Source: a virus (Duplodnaviria > Caudoviricetes). From it: a DNA stretch of 49,433 nt. Under the pieces are notes generated by a model that saw only the letters and a program-made list of their open reading frames with translations, did not search any database and had not been told where the DNA came from. Shown piece by piece: positions 33,003 through 43,603 of the stretch. A program made the position numbers and the translations under genes. The stretch spans positions 1-49,433 of the IMG/VR virus record IMGVR_UViG_3300036982_000470; one strand, given 5' to 3'. Position 1 is the first letter of the stretch. Every line of letters starts with the position of its first letter.

Positions 33003-33105
33003 ACATAAGCAATCGAAAGCGATTGCAAGCATTTGAAAAACTGCTTGCGGTCAATTTGCGGATAAACCGCAATGTTTTAAATATGTTAATTGATAGGAGA
33101 ATAAC

Positions 33106-33375
33106 ATGAGTACATTACAAGCAATAGCAACAGGCAATACCAAGAGTCTAGAACAGCAATTAGCTGAGTTACGTGCTGAAAATGAAGCACTTAAATCAAC
33201 TAAGGCCGCTAATTTACGGCTTAAAGTTAGCGAGAAAGGCGCATTGTCAGTGTATGGTTTAGGTAGATTCCCAGTCACACTCTATAAAGAGCAATGGCAG
33301 AGACTATTGACCAAGGTATCTGACATTGAAGCATTTATCAAAGCTAATGAGTCAACACTAAGCGTAAAGCAGTAA
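33106..33375 (+). CDS. Conserved small protein (KVSEKGxxSVYGLGRFPVTLYKEQW family), possibly a PC4-like nucleic-acid binder
   Basis: Strong SD AGGAGA, N-terminal coiled coil and a recognisable conserved motif. The fold is inferred. Confidence 0.7.
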   Translation: MSTLQAIATGNTKSLEQQLAELRAENEALKSTKAANLRLKVSEKGALSVYGLGRFPVTLYKEQWQRLLTKVSDIEAFIKANESTLSVKQ

Positions 33376-33379
33376 CAAG

Positions 33380-33431
33380 ATTACATACACAAATGATATA
33401 TCTTAATTGATATATCAAATGTGTATGTAAT
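33380..33431 (+). other. Long intergenic hairpin
   Basis: ATTACATACACA-AA-TGATATATC-TTAATT-GATATATCA-AA-TGTGTATGTAAT (12+9 bp). Confidence 0.85.
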
Positions 33432-33494
33432 TATCCTAACCTTGGTTTTATTTTAAAATTTTAATTATAAATGCATAATATTATTGGGGAAATT

Positions 33495-33722
33495 ATGAAT
33501 ACTAATGAATTTGATAACTTAGCTATCCTAGACGAGTTAGATATCACTGTTAGAGGCCTACAACTAACTGAATCTATTAAGAATCTTATTAGGGATGCTG
33601 TGCATGAATCCACCGACTTAACCTATAACGATTTAGCCAATATTGAACGCATGTTCGCTAGAGGCATGGTCAACAGCATTGCCTTAGCTAAAGGCAAGTG
33701 TTCCCACCACAGGCCTAATTAA
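33495..33722 (+). CDS. Hypothetical early protein
   Basis: Start moved to MNTNEF, which has a GGGGA SD (the track gives 33471). Confidence 0.6.
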   Translation: MNTNEFDNLAILDELDITVRGLQLTESIKNLIRDAVHESTDLTYNDLANIERMFARGMVNSIALAKGKCSHHRPN

Positions 33723-33727
33723 TGCCT

Positions 33728-33748
33728 AGCTAGAGCTTAGCTCTAGCT
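33728..33748 (+). other. Short intergenic hairpin
   Basis: AGCTAGAGC-TTA-GCTCTAGCT. Confidence 0.6.
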
Positions 33749-33777
33749 TAAATCATAACATGATTATGGTTTAAGCT

Positions 33778-33963
33778 ATGGCTAACAAGATTACATACAA
33801 AATTGATTTAAACGCCTCACAATCGGCGAATCGTGCACAATGCAGCCCTAGGTATGCACCTAAGCAACAAAATACAACTACAGGCCTACAAATCGATTTT
33901 AGCCGTATGTTGGCCGTTAGCAGAGCCGCTAAAAAGCACAGATTTTTTATTTTAAGAGGGTAA
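33778..33963 (+). CDS. Hypothetical protein (doubtful)
   Basis: 61-aa ORF with no clear SD. Confidence 0.3.
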   Translation: MANKITYKIDLNASQSANRAQCSPRYAPKQQNTTTGLQIDFSRMLAVSRAAKKHRFFILRG

Positions 33964-33967
33964 AACT

Positions 33968-34213
33968 ATGACTAAACAATATATGACTGAGGTATCAGTA
34001 ACTTATTGGAAGCTTAAAGAGACAGGCTGGTCAAAGCTTAGGACTCGCAGAATTAGAATCCTACTTGATACATTCCTAAAGCATATCGAAGCAATAGAAT
34101 CAAATCCGAATAATCTTATCTTTGCCCGTCATTATGATGGCATTAGTTACCGAGTAACTACCGAATCACCGAATGACAGGCATGTTTATAGAACTAGTAT
34201 TTATTATCAATAG
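33968..34213 (+). CDS. Hypothetical early protein
   Basis: 81 aa, GAGGG SD. Confidence 0.65.
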   Translation: MTKQYMTEVSVTYWKLKETGWSKLRTRRIRILLDTFLKHIEAIESNPNNLIFARHYDGISYRVTTESPNDRHVYRTSIYYQ

Positions 34214-34224
34214 GAGAAACTATT

Positions 34225-34656
34225 ATGACTAACAATGCAGGTATAGACTATGGCTTTGGTAAAACCAATATCGATAAAGATACTGGTATTAGATATGGCG
34301 TTATAAATAACAACACTGCCGAATATCTTAGTGAAGTTATGGAGCCTGTTTATCCTAAAGCACATAACTATGAGGATATGGATGAGTATCCTGATTATGA
34401 TTGTGAACCAATTGGCTGGGAATATGAAGGCGAAGGCTATCAGCTTACAGACTGTCTGGACTCTGCTGTTATGGTTATTAAATCCCCTTATTACACCTAT
34501 TGCAAATATTGTTCTCCCTGTGTTCCAGGAGCAGGGGATTTAAATAATCCTGAAACTGACGGCGTTAAAACCTATTGCCTAAACCATGATTTTTTTACCA
34601 GTGGCAAAGCCCCTTATCCCGTTTACTATACTGAAACTAATAAACTAGTGGAATAA
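34225..34656 (+). CDS. Phage protein with a CxxCSPCxPGAGDL motif
   Basis: AGGAGA SD; Cys cluster YCKYCSPCVPGAGDL...YCL. Confidence 0.8.
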   Translation: MTNNAGIDYGFGKTNIDKDTGIRYGVINNNTAEYLSEVMEPVYPKAHNYEDMDEYPDYDCEPIGWEYEGEGYQLTDCLDSAVMVIKSPYYTYCKYCSPCVPGAGDLNNPETDGVKTYCLNHDFFTSGKAPYPVYYTETNKLVE

Positions 34657-34657
34657 T

Positions 34658-34858
34658 ATGAATACTAATCATTACTGGTCTGACATTATAACCAATTCCG
34701 TTACTAAAAATAAATCAACATTAGTAGGCTATTGGTTAGGCATAGCTGCTTACTATCTTGATTCAATTACTGGTGTGGTGTGCCATAAAATGAACTGGAC
34801 AGGAAAAATAGCTAGTGGCGAATATAAAAACGCTTATTACTGGATATTTATTAGCTAA
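34658..34858 (+). CDS. Hypothetical protein
   Basis: 66 aa, coupled to the upstream stop. Confidence 0.5.
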   Translation: MNTNHYWSDIITNSVTKNKSTLVGYWLGIAAYYLDSITGVVCHKMNWTGKIASGEYKNAYYWIFIS

Positions 34859-34866
34859 GGAAACTT

Positions 34867-35103
34867 ATGAAAGCCTTTACCCAAGCCACCCTTGACCAAA
34901 TGACTGAAGCCCAAATGATAACCATAGATGGCCTATTAGTTAATGGCGTAACAGTAACAGAGCCGTTTGTTATTTACCTACCAGACAGATGTCTCTTAGG
35001 CCGAATAACATTAGACTCTGGAGCCACTATTAGTATATCAATCAATAAAGATGGAATAGCTACTTTTACACAACTATTAAGACTAACAAAGGAGAAATTA
35101 TGA
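34867..35103 (+). CDS. Hypothetical protein
   Basis: 78 aa, AAGGA SD, ATGA overlap with the next gene. Confidence 0.65.
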   Translation: MKAFTQATLDQMTEAQMITIDGLLVNGVTVTEPFVIYLPDRCLLGRITLDSGATISISINKDGIATFTQLLRLTKEKL

Positions 35104-35303
35104 AAGCTTGGGATATTATTGGCTATGCTTATGATGCTGATTGCCATTGCATAGAATGCACTGAAAAACTTTATTCAGACCCACAAGATGATACCTGTGA
35201 AGACTCTGAAGGCAATCCCTTATCCCCTATATTTGAATCAGAAGAACTAGAATCAGATTTATATTGTGGGACTTGTGGAAAAATAATTAAGTCATTCTCC
35301 TAA
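35100..35303 (+). CDS. Small acidic zinc-finger-like phage protein
   Basis: AAGGAGA SD; CIEC...CGTC. Confidence 0.75.
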   Translation: MKAWDIIGYAYDADCHCIECTEKLYSDPQDDTCEDSEGNPLSPIFESEELESDLYCGTCGKIIKSFS

Positions 35304-35306
35304 CAA

Positions 35307-35370
35307 TGTCGAAACACGGGTATTCCCTCGAATACCTGTGTCTGTAGGTAATTCCTACACTGATGAGACA
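35307..35370 (+). ncRNA. Type II hammerhead ribozyme
   Basis: TGTC-GAAA-[CACGGGTATTC-CCTC-GAATACCTGTG]-TC^-[TGTAGG-TAATT-CCTACA]-CTGATGA-GACA. All core nucleotides and three stems are present, with a GUC cleavage triplet (cut after 35342). Intergenic. Confidence 0.93.
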
Positions 35371-35402
35371 ATCATTAGAAATTTTTATAGGAGAATTATT
35401 AT

Positions 35403-36455
35403 ATGAAACAAGGTCGAACTTTAGTTGAACTAGCTCAAGAGCTAGAGCGTAGGCGAGAGTCTAAACATGATTACATAGCCAGAGGTGAAGCATTACATAT
35501 GTATTCACCGCATAGCATAGCTATTACTAATGGCGAAACTAAAACACTACAGCTTAACACTTTAGCTAAAGAGCAATTAGCCTCACGTCTTAATATCCCT
35601 AAAAAATATTATGACTACCTTGAAACAGAGCATCCTGATTTACTTGTAAAAAATGTAAATTATTTATTTCCTAATTCAGGTCAAAACCACCTAGTCCGCA
35701 CATTAGACGATAAGGCTAGAGCTATCCTTTCAGACCGCTTTCGCTGCTTAGATGATGCTCCCTTTGTTGAATCAATATTGCCTGTATTACTTAACTCTGG
35801 CTTTGAAGTTGTTTCAAGTGAACTAACTGATACGCGGATGTATCTTAAAGTTATATCCCCAAAGCTAATAGCTGAAGTTAAGAAAGGTGACGTTGTTACA
35901 GCAGGCTATTGGTTTAGAAATAGTGAAGTGGGGCATTCTCGCTTAGCAGGTGGCTTATTCCTTAACCGCTTAGTCTGCACTAATGGCATGATGATGAGCA
36001 AAGAATATGGTTTTGCTAAAAATCATAGCGGAAAAGCTTTAGACTTTAGTGAAGCCGCCGAAGCGTATTACACTAATGCGACTAGAGCACTAGATGAAAA
36101 GGCTTACTTTGCTAAACTCCGTGACGTTGTTAATGGCATGATAGGCTCTGAAAATGGCTTTAAAGCAGCCATTGCTAAATTCCGGGAAGCCTCACAAGAA
36201 CAAATCACAGGTGACCCTGTTAAAGCCATTGAAGCTGTAACAGAAGTATTTAGTCTTAACAAAGATGAATCTTGCGGAGTCTTACAAGCATTAATCAAAG
36301 GAGCTGATTTAAGCCGTTGGGGTGTAGCTAATGCTTTAACTGCTTACTCCCAGACTATAGCTGACTATGACCGGGCTACTGACTTTGAATCTTTTGGTGG
36401 ACAAATAATTGAATTGCCGCGCTCTGATTGGCAAGAAATTGCTGTAGCTGCTTAA
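35403..36455 (+). CDS. DUF932/DUF945-family protein
   Basis: MKxGRTLxELAxELxR start; RAILSDRF, NSEVG and RLVCTNGM motifs. Confidence 0.85.
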   Translation: MKQGRTLVELAQELERRRESKHDYIARGEALHMYSPHSIAITNGETKTLQLNTLAKEQLASRLNIPKKYYDYLETEHPDLLVKNVNYLFPNSGQNHLVRTLDDKARAILSDRFRCLDDAPFVESILPVLLNSGFEVVSSELTDTRMYLKVISPKLIAEVKKGDVVTAGYWFRNSEVGHSRLAGGLFLNRLVCTNGMMMSKEYGFAKNHSGKALDFSEAAEAYYTNATRALDEKAYFAKLRDVVNGMIGSENGFKAAIAKFREASQEQITGDPVKAIEAVTEVFSLNKDESCGVLQALIKGADLSRWGVANALTAYSQTIADYDRATDFESFGGQIIELPRSDWQEIAVAA

Positions 36456-36461
36456 AGCTTC

Positions 36462-36481
36462 GACCGCACAATAGTGCGGTC
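36462..36481 (+). terminator. GC-rich hairpin after the DUF932 gene (terminator or mRNA stabiliser)
   Basis: GACCGCAC-AATA-GTGCGGTC with a weak U-tract. Confidence 0.45.
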
Positions 36482-36513
36482 CTTGGTTTAACTAACTATA
36501 GGAGATACCATTT

Positions 36514-36882
36514 ATGGGCTGGAATTGGACACACAGACCTTCACATGAAACCGCTAAAGAATTTATGACCAAACAACTAACTTATGAATACACTGAAGTC
36601 TTAGGTATTAGTATTCATAATTCTGTAGGCTATGTCGCCGTTAAAAATAAACCTACTAACTTAGTTGAATGCGTTGTAATCTTACTAAAACAAGATTCAA
36701 CCGTTCTTTACAATCAAGGCTTTAAATTAATCTGGGAAGAAGAAGGCCCTTATCACACTGATTGCCCATATTACATTTTAGCTTTGTTGTCTGACACTAC
36801 TGCCTGGAGAAGTATTGAATGGCGTGCTGCCTGCCGTGACAGAAGACCGCCTAACTATATTCAACCAGGAGTACAAGTATGA
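36514..36882 (+). CDS. DUF6927-like protein
   Basis: MGW start; EEEGPYHTDCPxxILxLL...WRxxCR motif. Confidence 0.7.
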   Translation: MGWNWTHRPSHETAKEFMTKQLTYEYTEVLGISIHNSVGYVAVKNKPTNLVECVVILLKQDSTVLYNQGFKLIWEEEGPYHTDCPYYILALLSDTTAWRSIEWRAACRDRRPPNYIQPGVQV

Positions 36883-37157
36883 CTAAATTTGCTGATATTG
36901 AAGTTGACATAGATAATTTAGCAAAAGGTCTGCTGGATTTAATTTATATCCACCCAGACAAATTCGCTCTATCGTATGGCTGCATTCCAGCCGATATAAT
37001 GTACTTATTTGACAAAATACTAACAATAAAAATACCGGATAACTGTATAAAAAACCACTACGTGATTGATGGCGTATACATACGCCAACAAATAACACAC
37101 GCCGTTATTTGTTCGATTTTAGAACAAGCTTGTAAAGACAAAACTTGTTTAGTTTAG
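36879..37157 (+). CDS. Hypothetical protein
   Basis: 92 aa, AGGAG SD, ATGA overlap. Confidence 0.65.
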   Translation: MTKFADIEVDIDNLAKGLLDLIYIHPDKFALSYGCIPADIMYLFDKILTIKIPDNCIKNHYVIDGVYIRQQITHAVICSILEQACKDKTCLV

Positions 37158-37204
37158 TTCACTAGAGGCAGGTCACACCGTGACCTGCCCATAGTGGCCT
37201 AACT
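37154..37204 (+). other. Long interrupted intergenic hairpin
   Basis: CACTA-GA-GGCAGGTCAC-ACC-GTGACCTGCC-CA-TAGTG with further flanking pairs. Confidence 0.75.
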
Positions 37205-37257
37205 TTAAAGATTCTCTTTAAAACTAAACCACTGTTTTAAACTTGCAAAGGAAACTT

Positions 37258-37557
37258 ATGATAAAGGTTATATTCGTTTTAGCCATAATGCCTGTAATAG
37301 CCGGTTGCGGGGTCGCCTACGCTCCAAACCCATTTACCAAGGGTCACATAGCCATTGTGGCCGATGAAGCTGGCATGAGGGCATTTTCTGACCTACAGAC
37401 GGGGCTGGTAAATGAAGCTAAGACTTCACCCGATGTCAAAGGCGCTCACTACCAACACCGTGACCTATCCGAACAGGAAGAAACCAAACGAGCTTATGCT
37501 CCTGGTTTTCTCCAAGGCCTCTTTACACCCAAAATTGAAGGGAGCAATCAAAAATGA
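37258..37557 (+). CDS. Lipoprotein
   Basis: Start at MIKVIFVLAIMPVIAG|C (AAGGA SD); lipobox IAGC. Confidence 0.7.
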   Translation: MIKVIFVLAIMPVIAGCGVAYAPNPFTKGHIAIVADEAGMRAFSDLQTGLVNEAKTSPDVKGAHYQHRDLSEQEETKRAYAPGFLQGLFTPKIEGSNQK

Positions 37558-37637
37558 ATGAATGCATAAAATTCGTTTTATATGGAACTTCTTTTGTCGG
37601 ATTTTTATATTTACTTAGTCAAACCAATATGTTATAG
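37554..37637 (+). CDS. Small hydrophobic peptide (27 aa, not in the track)
   Basis: MNECIKFVLYGTSFVGFLYLLSQTNML; GGGAG SD and ATGA overlap. Confidence 0.5.
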   Translation: MNECIKFVLYGTSFVGFLYLLSQTNML

Positions 37638-37645
37638 GTAACTAT

Positions 37646-37849
37646 ATGAAAAGAAAAGACTTTATTATCTCTATCTTAAACGATTCTGCCCATGGTGAAA
37701 CAACACCGCTTAAAGGATTAATTTACTATCTTAGAGACGATTGTAATATCTCTGTCGAGAGGATAGTTCACATAGCAAGGAAGCATTTCAGTATTCCTGT
37801 AAGTGTTAGCCTAGCGACTCTTGATACCATACTCCCGGAGTTAAGCTAA
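37646..37849 (+). CDS. Hypothetical protein
   Basis: 67 aa, AGGT SD, last gene before the terminator. Confidence 0.6.
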   Translation: MKRKDFIISILNDSAHGETTPLKGLIYYLRDDCNISVERIVHIARKHFSIPVSVSLATLDTILPELS

Positions 37850-37857
37850 ACAACTCC

Positions 37858-37893
37858 TAGGTACCTAGAGCATTTGCTTTAGGTACCTATTTT
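37858..37893 (+). terminator. Intrinsic terminator closing the early cluster
   Basis: TAGGTACCTAGAGC-ATTT-GCTTTAGGTACCTA followed by TTTT. Confidence 0.7.
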
Positions 37894-37904
37894 CATCCAC
37901 CAGA

Positions 37905-38001
37905 CGTATGGGACGTATGGGACGTATCTCTCCTATTGTTATATATTCTTTTAAATTCAATAGCCAACAATAAGAGGTATGCGTCCCATACGTCCCATGC
38001 G
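37905..38001. repeat. Inverted iteron array around an AT-rich core; putative replication origin
   Basis: Arms 37905-37940 and 37966-38001 match at 31/36 positions. They are built from 9-bp GGGACGTAT units around a 25-nt AT-rich spacer, directly downstream of the primase-helicase gene. Confidence 0.75.
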
Positions 38002-38040
38002 GCACTTTTAGAACAAAACCGCACAGTTGCAAATACCCTA

Positions 38041-41707: not shown

Positions 41708-43060
41708 ATGAAACTTATTTACCCTTCCAATAAGACTCTTTATCCGTTTCAAATCGAAGCGATAGAGAAAACCATTCATTTTTTACGAGTCAATCCCACC
41801 TCCTCTTGTTACAACGCCTGTGAAATGGGGCTTGGCAAAACCATTCAAGCGATTGTCGCTCTAAACACTTTAGGCTACAAAAAAGTTCTTGTTGTTTGCC
41901 CTGCTATCATGCGGCTGGTTTGGGCGGATGAGATTAGAGCCTGGAGCGAGCCCCTATCCCCTAGCTACACAATTCTTAAAGGCTCTGATATTACCGGAAT
42001 GTTTAAAGTTCCCTGGAACTGGCTCATTACTTCTTACGATTTAGCTTCAAGTGCAAATCTTCTTCGCTACCTGCAAGATTTACCCTTTGATGCTATTATA
42101 TGTGACGAGGCCCACTACCTAAAAAACAGCAAAGCCAAGCGCACAAAAGCCGTGCTGCAGCATCTTTTCCCCAAAGCCAAATATCATTTAGCGCTTTCCG
42201 GGACTCCCTTCACTACGCGCATTGTTGACGGCTACACACTTTTTCACCGGATGCTCCCTTCTCGCTTTCCGGACTTCCCTTCATTTGCCGATGAGTTTTC
42301 GCATTGCAGAATAATGCATATTAGTGGAAGAGCCATTCGTGATTACTACGGCGTTAAAAACGCTGATGTGCTCCGCACAATTATCCGGCAAAACTTTTAC
42401 GTGCGCTATACCAAAGAAGAGGTATTAAAAGACCTGCCGCCCAAGCAGTTTAATAAGATTGCATTACCTGTCGAGTACGCGGTAGTGCCAAAAGAAGTTA
42501 GTAAAAGAGAGGAGCTTGAGACCCAAGCGAATTTAATCAGGCAAGCCCTTGAGGCCGGAAACCCAGCGCCTCCCTTGCCTGCCTCTTTAGCAGAACATAG
42601 GAGATTACAAGGTGAAAAGAAAGTTCCAGCCGTTATCGAGTTTGTGCAAAACCTTCTGGACCAAGATATACCAGTGGTTTTATTTGCCTGGCATAGAAAT
42701 GTCATTGCGGCATTACACCTTGCGTTTGGAAAATATAACCCTGGAGTCATCACTGGCGACACAGCGCCTGGCGCTCGTAGAACGGCTGTGGCTGCGTTCC
42801 AGAGCGGAGAAACGCTACTATTTATTGGAAACATGGGCGCGGCTGGTGTTGGAATTACACTCACAACATCGTCGACTGTGGTCCTTGCAGAGCTCGATTG
42901 GTCGCCTACAGTTGTCTCACAGGCGATTGACAGACTACATCGAATCGGACAGAGGGACGTGGTAAATGTGTACTACTTTTCGGTAGAAAATAGTCTTGAT
43001 GAATCTATTGAGCATGTACTAATGAATAGGGTAAGAGACTTTAAAAAGGTGTTGGAATGA
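41708..43060 (+). CDS. SNF2-family (SF2) helicase
   Basis: EMGLGKT, DEAH, LSGTP, GVGITLT and QAIDRLHRIGQ motifs. Confidence 0.93.
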   Translation: MKLIYPSNKTLYPFQIEAIEKTIHFLRVNPTSSCYNACEMGLGKTIQAIVALNTLGYKKVLVVCPAIMRLVWADEIRAWSEPLSPSYTILKGSDITGMFKVPWNWLITSYDLASSANLLRYLQDLPFDAIICDEAHYLKNSKAKRTKAVLQHLFPKAKYHLALSGTPFTTRIVDGYTLFHRMLPSRFPDFPSFADEFSHCRIMHISGRAIRDYYGVKNADVLRTIIRQNFYVRYTKEEVLKDLPPKQFNKIALPVEYAVVPKEVSKREELETQANLIRQALEAGNPAPPLPASLAEHRRLQGEKKVPAVIEFVQNLLDQDIPVVLFAWHRNVIAALHLAFGKYNPGVITGDTAPGARRTAVAAFQSGETLLFIGNMGAAGVGITLTTSSTVVLAELDWSPTVVSQAIDRLHRIGQRDVVNVYYFSVENSLDESIEHVLMNRVRDFKKVLE

Positions 43061-43530: not shown

Positions 43531-43603
43531 ATAGTCTTGATGAATCTATTGAGCATGTACTAATGAATAGGGTAAGAGACTTTAAAAAGGTGTTGGAATG
43601 AAA
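43531..43603 (+). repeat. 73-bp perfect direct repeat, copy 2
   Basis: Identical to 42990-43062; supplies the SD and ATG of 43598-43813. Confidence 0.97.

Follow-up and report, generated by a model that had tools for sequence, protein, structure and literature searches.

The ribozyme locus and its flanking genes

The window analysed here is a whole phage contig of 49,433 bases. It carries a terminase large subunit gene and a primase-like gene, and we therefore take it to be the genome of a tailed phage; the metagenome runs containing it come from sediment. The locus of interest lies inside a + strand block of small genes (33106-37849). An earlier sequence-only reading had placed it between two early genes. 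The intercistronic position stands, whereas "early" is a suggestion drawn from the gene layout only. The features needed below are the following, where SD denotes a Shine-Dalgarno sequence and anti-SD its complement.

33089..33105, + strand: leader and SD of gene 33106, which opens the + strand block; of all ungapped complements of the anti-SD element in the genome, this is the best
35100..35303, + strand: 67-aa upstream ORF with two CxxC motifs, from an unnamed family (488 relatives at E<=0.001)
35294..35302, + strand: anti-SD 9-mer ATTCTCCTA, exact reverse complement of the DUF932 SD TAGGAGAAT
35300..35303, + strand: CTAA, candidate outer extension of stem II with TTAG 35375-78 (predicted only)
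35307..35370, + strand: hammerhead ribozyme of type II, in the short-loop-I subclass, with GUC as cut triplet and C35342 as the last base before the predicted cut
35314..35341, + strand: stem III hairpin, 12 pairs including one G.U (35314-25 with 35330-41); fold prediction
35343..35359, + strand: stem I hairpin, 6 pairs, loop TAATT (35343-48 with 35354-59); fold prediction
35372..35378, + strand: anti-core word TCATTAG, complementary to CUGAUGA 35360-66 (7 pairs, one G.U)
35388..35396, + strand: SD region belonging to the DUF932-like gene, whose ATG follows after 6 nt
35403..36455, + strand: gene for a DUF932-like protein, 350 aa; phrog_1362 match, homologues with PF06067

The upstream 67-residue protein has no Pfam or PHROG family, and its two CxxC motifs are likely to bind zinc. 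Its C-terminal residues past the second CxxC motif are variable among 18 aligned members, and thus neither explain nor support the anti-SD. The downstream gene had been named a DUF932 gene. Its product stays below the Pfam gathering score (17.6 bits against a cut-off of 23, E 0.0034), but most homologues at 40-49% identity among the matches listed carry PF06067, and the 350-residue protein is therefore a divergent DUF932 relative. It has no solved relative and no clear fold match (best Z 7.5). Protein-led searches returned 6 viral and 58 metagenome loci of the DUF932 family, the best at 58% identity. None of 24 candidates from an alignment-led viral scan was confirmed, and annotated phages contained distant DUF932 relatives only, with no match to the RNA element. 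Promoter-like sites between 32400 and 38100 showed no excess (18 versus 20.5 in shuffles).

The hammerhead ribozyme

The complete type II hammerhead reported earlier at 35307-35370 is borne out in every coordinate, with a perfect core and three stems. Stem II, which is open, pairs TGTC 35307-10 with GACA 35367-70. GAAA occupies 35311-14, the GUC cut triplet (35340-42) follows directly on stem III, and the catalytic CUGAUGA spans 35360-66. The CUGANGA core, GAAA and NUH cut triplet of type II are thus all found at 35307-35370, as is the type II topology, in which loops close stems I and III while stem II is left open. By a descriptor scan and a covariance model (R1) this is the only hammerhead on either strand of the window. 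R1, built from 38 other short-loop type II phage hammerheads, matches the locus at 60.5 bits (rough E 8e-18), a score in which the core match is partly by construction since the training loci were collected by a core pattern common to this locus. Stems I and III covary strongly in the training set.

In the Infernal check suggested earlier, against the Rfam hammerhead models, no model, RF02276 included, matched at gathering score, and Hammerhead_3 gave a weak match only (18.8 bits, E 3.2). This type III match (35335-35413) is off-register and partial, and was rejected. RF02276 detects none of 12 short-loop loci and 7 of 8 long-loop loci, so the Rfam miss shows the coverage of the model and not non-membership. 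A pseudoknot between loop I and the 3' tail is a feature of the majority of type II hammerheads (PMC3088659, accessible part). At this locus the candidates for it are A-U only, of 4-5 pairs (for example UAAU with AUUA 35374-77), and no covariation was seen. On these sequence grounds we regard the locus as a genuine type II hammerhead, in a subclass that Rfam misses. Self-cleavage at C35342 would be expected by analogy with the family (PMC3088659), whose phage clusters, according to the accessible part of that report, cleave both in vitro and in E. coli; the making of gene-length mRNAs was proposed as their role.

Complementarity between the upstream flank and the SD

Two further claims of the sequence-only reading hold exactly: ATTCTCCTA (35294-302) is perfectly complementary to TAGGAGAAT (35388-96), and it overlaps the upstream stop, the TAA at 35301-03 lying inside the element and 3 nt before stem II. 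The predicted cut site at C35342 does fall between anti-SD and SD, which in the precursor would form 9 Watson-Crick pairs across it. A complement of at least 9 nt in a 35-nt flank arises by chance in 0.06% of cases when judged by 8,653 sense-strand coding 35-mers, in 0.15% under a Markov model and in 0.27% when the ORF end is recoded synonymously. Only one copy of the 9-mer is present on the + strand of the 49-kb genome, and the match is the longest among the genome's 61 leaders, the next being 6 nt. No aptamer was found at the ribozyme locus, and nothing in the window matches Rfam at gathering score.

The same element has a second possible partner within the genome. Between 35291-35307 and the 33106 leader, 15 of 17 positions are complementary, compared with 13 of 17 for the DUF932 leader, and the predicted duplexes are worth -14.9 and -12.1 kcal/mol, respectively. 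The 33106 match is the best on either strand of the genome, the next reaching 13. Given the shared 9-mer, at least 15 of 17 arises in 2.8% of draws. The word TAGGAGA precedes genes 33106, 34225, 35403 and 36514.

Predicted folding and unmasking of the SD

In a nearest-neighbour model of the uncut RNA, the anti-SD pairs with the SD (P 0.98), and in the same fold the catalytic CUGAUGA is buried by UCAUUAG 35372-78 (P 0.99). The core-buried fold with the SD helix has an energy of -40.9 kcal/mol, the active core with the SD helix -33.5 kcal/mol, and the active core with the CUAA:UUAG extension -27.2 kcal/mol. Neither the SD lock nor the anti-core hairpin can form together with this extension. The earlier proposal that the anti-SD/SD helix extends stem II is therefore compatible with an active core, whereas in the lowest-energy fold predicted the helix accompanies the core-burying hairpin instead. 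The model omits tertiary contacts and Mg2+, both of which favour the active hammerhead fold. How far the active fold lies above the ensemble depends on chain length: with the chain end at 35370-76 the gap is only 1.0-2.6 kcal/mol, and past 35378 it is 4.7-6.6 kcal/mol (rank 16 of 138), so that complete default cleavage is not assured.

The energy predicted for opening the SD is 5.3-5.6 kcal/mol in the precursor, 2.1-2.5 kcal/mol in the 3' product after the cut, and 2.7-3.3 kcal/mol when an upstream ribosome is modelled. The unmasking predicted for the cut ranks third among 120 natural type II hammerheads, for which the median is 0.08 kcal/mol. The anti-SD:SD helix is left unbroken between the two products (cofold -7.7 kcal/mol), and release of the SD thus needs product dissociation, which is plausible at cellular concentrations. 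Of the earlier statement that cleavage or upstream translation releases the SD, the predicted drop in opening energy is found for both events, but the cut by itself does not break the helix.

The word that buries the core is not confined to this locus. A scan of viral contigs for such tails gave 73 loci, of which 71 have hammerhead folds (L477-L549). CATCAG follows directly after stem II in 54 distinct sequences from 47 loci, and in 5 sequences the anti-core word stands 3 nt further on, as it does here. In sets unselected for the tail it is present in 6 of 137 hammerheads versus 1.5-1.9 in shuffles (P 0.006-0.017), and in 6 of the 43 tails that begin with CA versus 0.66 expected, counts that kinship among loci may inflate. 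A scan for core plus anti-core lacking the GAAA arm gave 21 loci, with no hammerhead by eye. The anti-core penalty at this locus (3.25 kcal/mol) is close to the median of the tail-bearing set (3.05 kcal/mol), and having the tail is thus no sign of a dead ribozyme here. It may displace stem II after the cut, or limit the time available for cutting. The core-burying tail of these 71 phage type II hammerheads is apparently an undescribed module: a literature search of main texts, few of them from subscription journals, found no paper on it. Even if the SD lock is false, the tail offers a testable lead on product release or cut timing.

Survey of other hammerheads

A pattern scan covering 12 of the 64 parts of a viral contig collection gave 130 loci (about 670 estimated) and 137 distinct type II hammerheads besides the present one. 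With this locus included, 120 of 138 have an SD and an ORF at most 70 nt downstream, and in 117 of 138 an upstream ORF ends at most 60 nt away. The order stop, ribozyme, SD, ATG is generic. In 91 of 138 (L007-L136 and this locus) the upstream stop lies within 5 nt of stem II, a distance at which a terminating ribosome would overlap the 5' arm of the ribozyme. Such tight spacing possibly reflects compact packing or translation-gated cutting.

The anti-SD has a different distribution. None of 119 other type II hammerheads has one of at least 7 nt. A complement covering at least 4 SD bases is absent from 111 of the 119, reaches 4 nt in 7 and 6 nt in 1, with no excess over cross-pairs, and 3 of the 119 form duplexes at or below -12 kcal/mol where 3.4 would be expected. 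When hammerheads preceded by TCCT were sought, 97 viral and 44 genome loci yielded 78 others with an SD, of which 1 reaches 7 nt, compared with 3.1% of cross-pairs; the duplex energies agreed with expectation in these sets as well. Among anti-core hammerheads 53 of 56 are without an anti-SD of at least 4 nt, and the same is true of 28 of 29 type I and 6 of 7 type III hammerheads. The anti-SD is therefore not a class trait of type II hammerheads. A direct scan for TCTCCTA together with GTCGAAAC gave 120 loci from 30 of the 64 parts, none of them a hammerhead. One unrelated phage hammerhead (L286:470-620) has an 11-pair anti-SD around a 2-nt bulge (-12.3 kcal/mol) together with a core-complementary tail; the frequency of such duplexes is within chance, 3 being seen against 5.5 expected at or below -12. 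L286 carries a second hammerhead at 880-946.

The leaders of other DUF932-family genes were also inspected. In 2 of the 64 loci (L148:2420-2500 and L173:2420-2500) a type III hammerhead lies directly 5' of the gene, each after a GC hairpin, and no anti-SD is apparent by eye. Many DUF932-family loci (L141-L172) have in common a GC-rich structured leader around a GCGGGGA...CCCCGC hairpin, some 100 nt 5' of the gene, and the leaders scanned gave no Rfam match. Before the DUF932-like gene of 58% identity, L137:110-165 contains two adjacent hairpins that resemble stems III and I, with a TAAT loop. They have no catalytic core and match neither Rfam nor R1, and may be a decayed ribozyme or a plain processing hairpin. 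A hairpin at L002:109-132, likewise before a DUF932-like gene, has both 9-nt arms of the present stem III in swapped order, a likeness that is probably due to chance.

Relatives of the locus

The relatives are known as differences plus 30-letter loose ends from single low-depth contigs. X11 aligns over 35294-35425, i.e. from the first base of the anti-SD, and is unrelated further upstream, where its stop codon lies 3 nt before the anti-SD. Since this homology starts at 35294 and the last residues of the upstream protein are unconserved, the sequences suggest that the anti-SD travels with the ribozyme and not with the upstream protein. Weak similarity may reach about 8 nt further upstream. The SD core of X11 (35388-95) has no listed change. 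Four of its eight substitutions could be placed no more closely than to the outermost 30 nt or so at either end, which means that the anti-SD of X11 may be altered; at about 10% divergence, a run of 9 bases without a change would be no surprise.

X9 has the same upstream ORF, the same stem II arm and GAAAC, and a different stem III. In X11 stem III is shorter, and two of the three substitutions listed there keep pairs while the third needs an unlisted partner change. These two relatives support the hammerhead fold. A35374G in X11 keeps the anti-core pair as U.G and also suits the weak loop I pseudoknot. X5, about 91% identical in the gene, keeps TAGGAGA and TCATTAG, and its next two SD-flanking bases are changed, which leaves 7 of the 9 anti-SD:SD pairs unless these are compensated on the 5' side, outside the sequence seen. 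X3, X4, X7 and X10 have no listed differences, in sequence that does not span the element. The evidence of the relatives on the lock is thus mixed.

Possible roles of the ribozyme and the anti-SD

The explanation towards which we lean, with slightly less than even confidence, is that the ribozyme mainly processes polycistronic mRNA, cutting the shared message after C35342 by default. Cleavage would take place during or soon after transcription, leaving stem III as the 3' end of the upstream product and giving the DUF932 gene its own hairpin-capped mRNA with stem I at the 5' end. The anti-core hairpin may then displace stem II, which would release the products and leave two hairpins at that 5' end. 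The anti-SD would be a locus-specific match, mattering only for transcripts both uncut and untranslated upstream, and output would be little changed. In favour of processing are the generic layout, the lack of anti-SD enrichment, the near-zero unmasking at the class median, the small energy gap while the chain ends at 35370-76 together with the cleavage known for phage clusters (PMC3088659, accessible part), and the type III hammerheads, with no apparent anti-SD, that precede two other DUF932-family genes. The wide gap once 35378 has been made weakens it. On another reading the ribozyme might be trapped, the anti-core hairpin mostly blocking the cut and the anti-SD:SD helix serving only as ordinary translational coupling to the upstream ORF. 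In the full RNA this hairpin indeed has a predicted P of 0.99 and outdoes stem II by about 5 kcal/mol, and an upstream ribosome by itself lowers the SD barrier. We nevertheless find a trapped ribozyme unlikely: its core is perfect, the relatives keep a stem III, rebuilt in X9 and in X11 still paired at two of three listed substitutions, 71 other intact hammerheads carry such a tail at a similar median penalty, and the folding model lacks the stabilising tertiary contacts and Mg2+.

Processing is weakened also by the rare, genome-unique 9-nt match, the high unmasking rank and the point at which the X11 alignment starts. The same observations argue for a selected SD lock, a two-state RNA opened either by cleavage with product release or by a ribosome terminating at the overlapping UAA. 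In one state the ribozyme would be active, CUAA would pair with UUAG and the SD would be free; in the other the anti-core hairpin and the anti-SD:SD helix would form together, with ribozyme and translation both off, and a co-transcriptional race would choose between them. The switch proposed by the sequence-only reading keeps some of its ground here. The match is rare by chance (0.06-0.27%) and pairs at P 0.98, no flank of the 119 other hammerheads pairs as well with this SD, the opening energy falls after the cut or with an upstream ribosome, and in X11, where homology begins at 35294, the stop would let a terminating ribosome reach the anti-SD. L286 offers an unrelated 11-pair bulged anti-SD, and the engineered counterpart works (PMC5052635, accessible part). 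Elsewhere the switch loses ground: no hammerhead set is enriched in anti-SDs and L286 is within chance, 3% of cross-pairs are equally strong in absolute energy, the X11 anti-SD is possibly altered, X5 changes the SD flank and retains 7 of 9 complementary SD-side bases, the match was picked post hoc out of a very large scan, and the element fits the leader of gene 33106 better than that of DUF932. A selected lock is accordingly possible but doubtful. That better fit could mean that the element mirrors a leader common to the block genes and not the DUF932 SD specifically, so that it would damp 33106 and its sisters. After the cut it would adjoin the 3'-terminal stem III of the upstream piece, from where it could fold back or act in trans; long-range pairing of a 3' end with an SD is known from S. 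aureus icaR. The 15/17 match, its duplex energy, the 2.8% chance and the common TAGGAGA speak for this, but it rests on a single genome and on element boundaries chosen post hoc, an equally well bound leader exists for 1.3% of 1,651 random sense 23-mers, and the partner is 2.2 kb away, with one shared transcript assumed. We therefore consider it unlikely. Tentatively, and with more doubt than belief, one may picture a natural ligand-free switch in which hammerhead folding races against the core-burying hairpin and the outcome is a message either cut and translated or SD-locked, with the ribosome stopping at the UAA as a second key and the tail as a widespread, apparently undescribed module.

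Relation to known systems

The following comparisons draw on the accessible parts of the sources cited. The locus resembles known type II hammerheads (PMC3088659; RF02276) in its core, in the permutation that leaves stem II open, in its intergenic position before a single phage gene and in the transcript processing proposed for them; it differs in its short loop I lacking a clear Watson-Crick pseudoknot, its anti-core tail and its locus-specific anti-SD. In engineered SD-masking hammerhead and twister switches (PMC5052635) the anti-SD likewise lies across the cut from the SD, which cleavage would set free. A ribozyme stem is made of SD and anti-SD in those designs, and their function has been measured, whereas at the present locus the helix is set apart from stem II by a large loop, goes with the inactive fold, overlaps a stop codon, involves no ligand and is a sequence prediction only. 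The RiboJ insulator (PMC6206723) shares the removal of upstream RNA by self-cleavage and a hairpin-containing leader before the ribosome-binding site; it is synthetic and placed after a promoter, whereas this locus is natural, intercistronic and of type II. The glmS ribozyme and the c-di-GMP group I intron (PMC5052635, PMC9481103) are also natural ribozymes tied to gene control, but they depend on a ligand, whereas our locus is without an aptamer. A search for riboswitches adjoining self-cleaving ribozymes, as given in the accessible part of PMC9481103, found none. VIPR guide arrays with interspersed hammerheads (bioRxiv 10.64898/2026.04.26.720920) also use phage hammerheads for RNA processing. 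We rejected such an array here: there is one ribozyme, no GGY/NN repeats are seen by eye in the 32-nt leader, and no RAMP-like match is listed downstream.

In the accessible part of a 2019 review (PMC6765202), phage hammerheads were suggested to process polycistronic RNA and to affect its stability or translation, a role that was left undefined. Our literature search of main texts, few of them from subscription journals, found no natural SD-masking hammerhead; Dataset S1 of PMC3088659 may contain such sequences. If the lock is true, nature would here have a counterpart to a design known from engineering. With a length of 110 nt, the locus makes the role of a phage hammerhead directly testable.

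Two other regions of the window are worth recording. A long inverted repeat with 9-nt tandem units (37890-38018) lies between converging genes and adjoins the primase-like gene; it is possibly an origin or terminator region. The leaders of two genes (43040-43057 and 43580-43598) are also identical over at least 28 nt.
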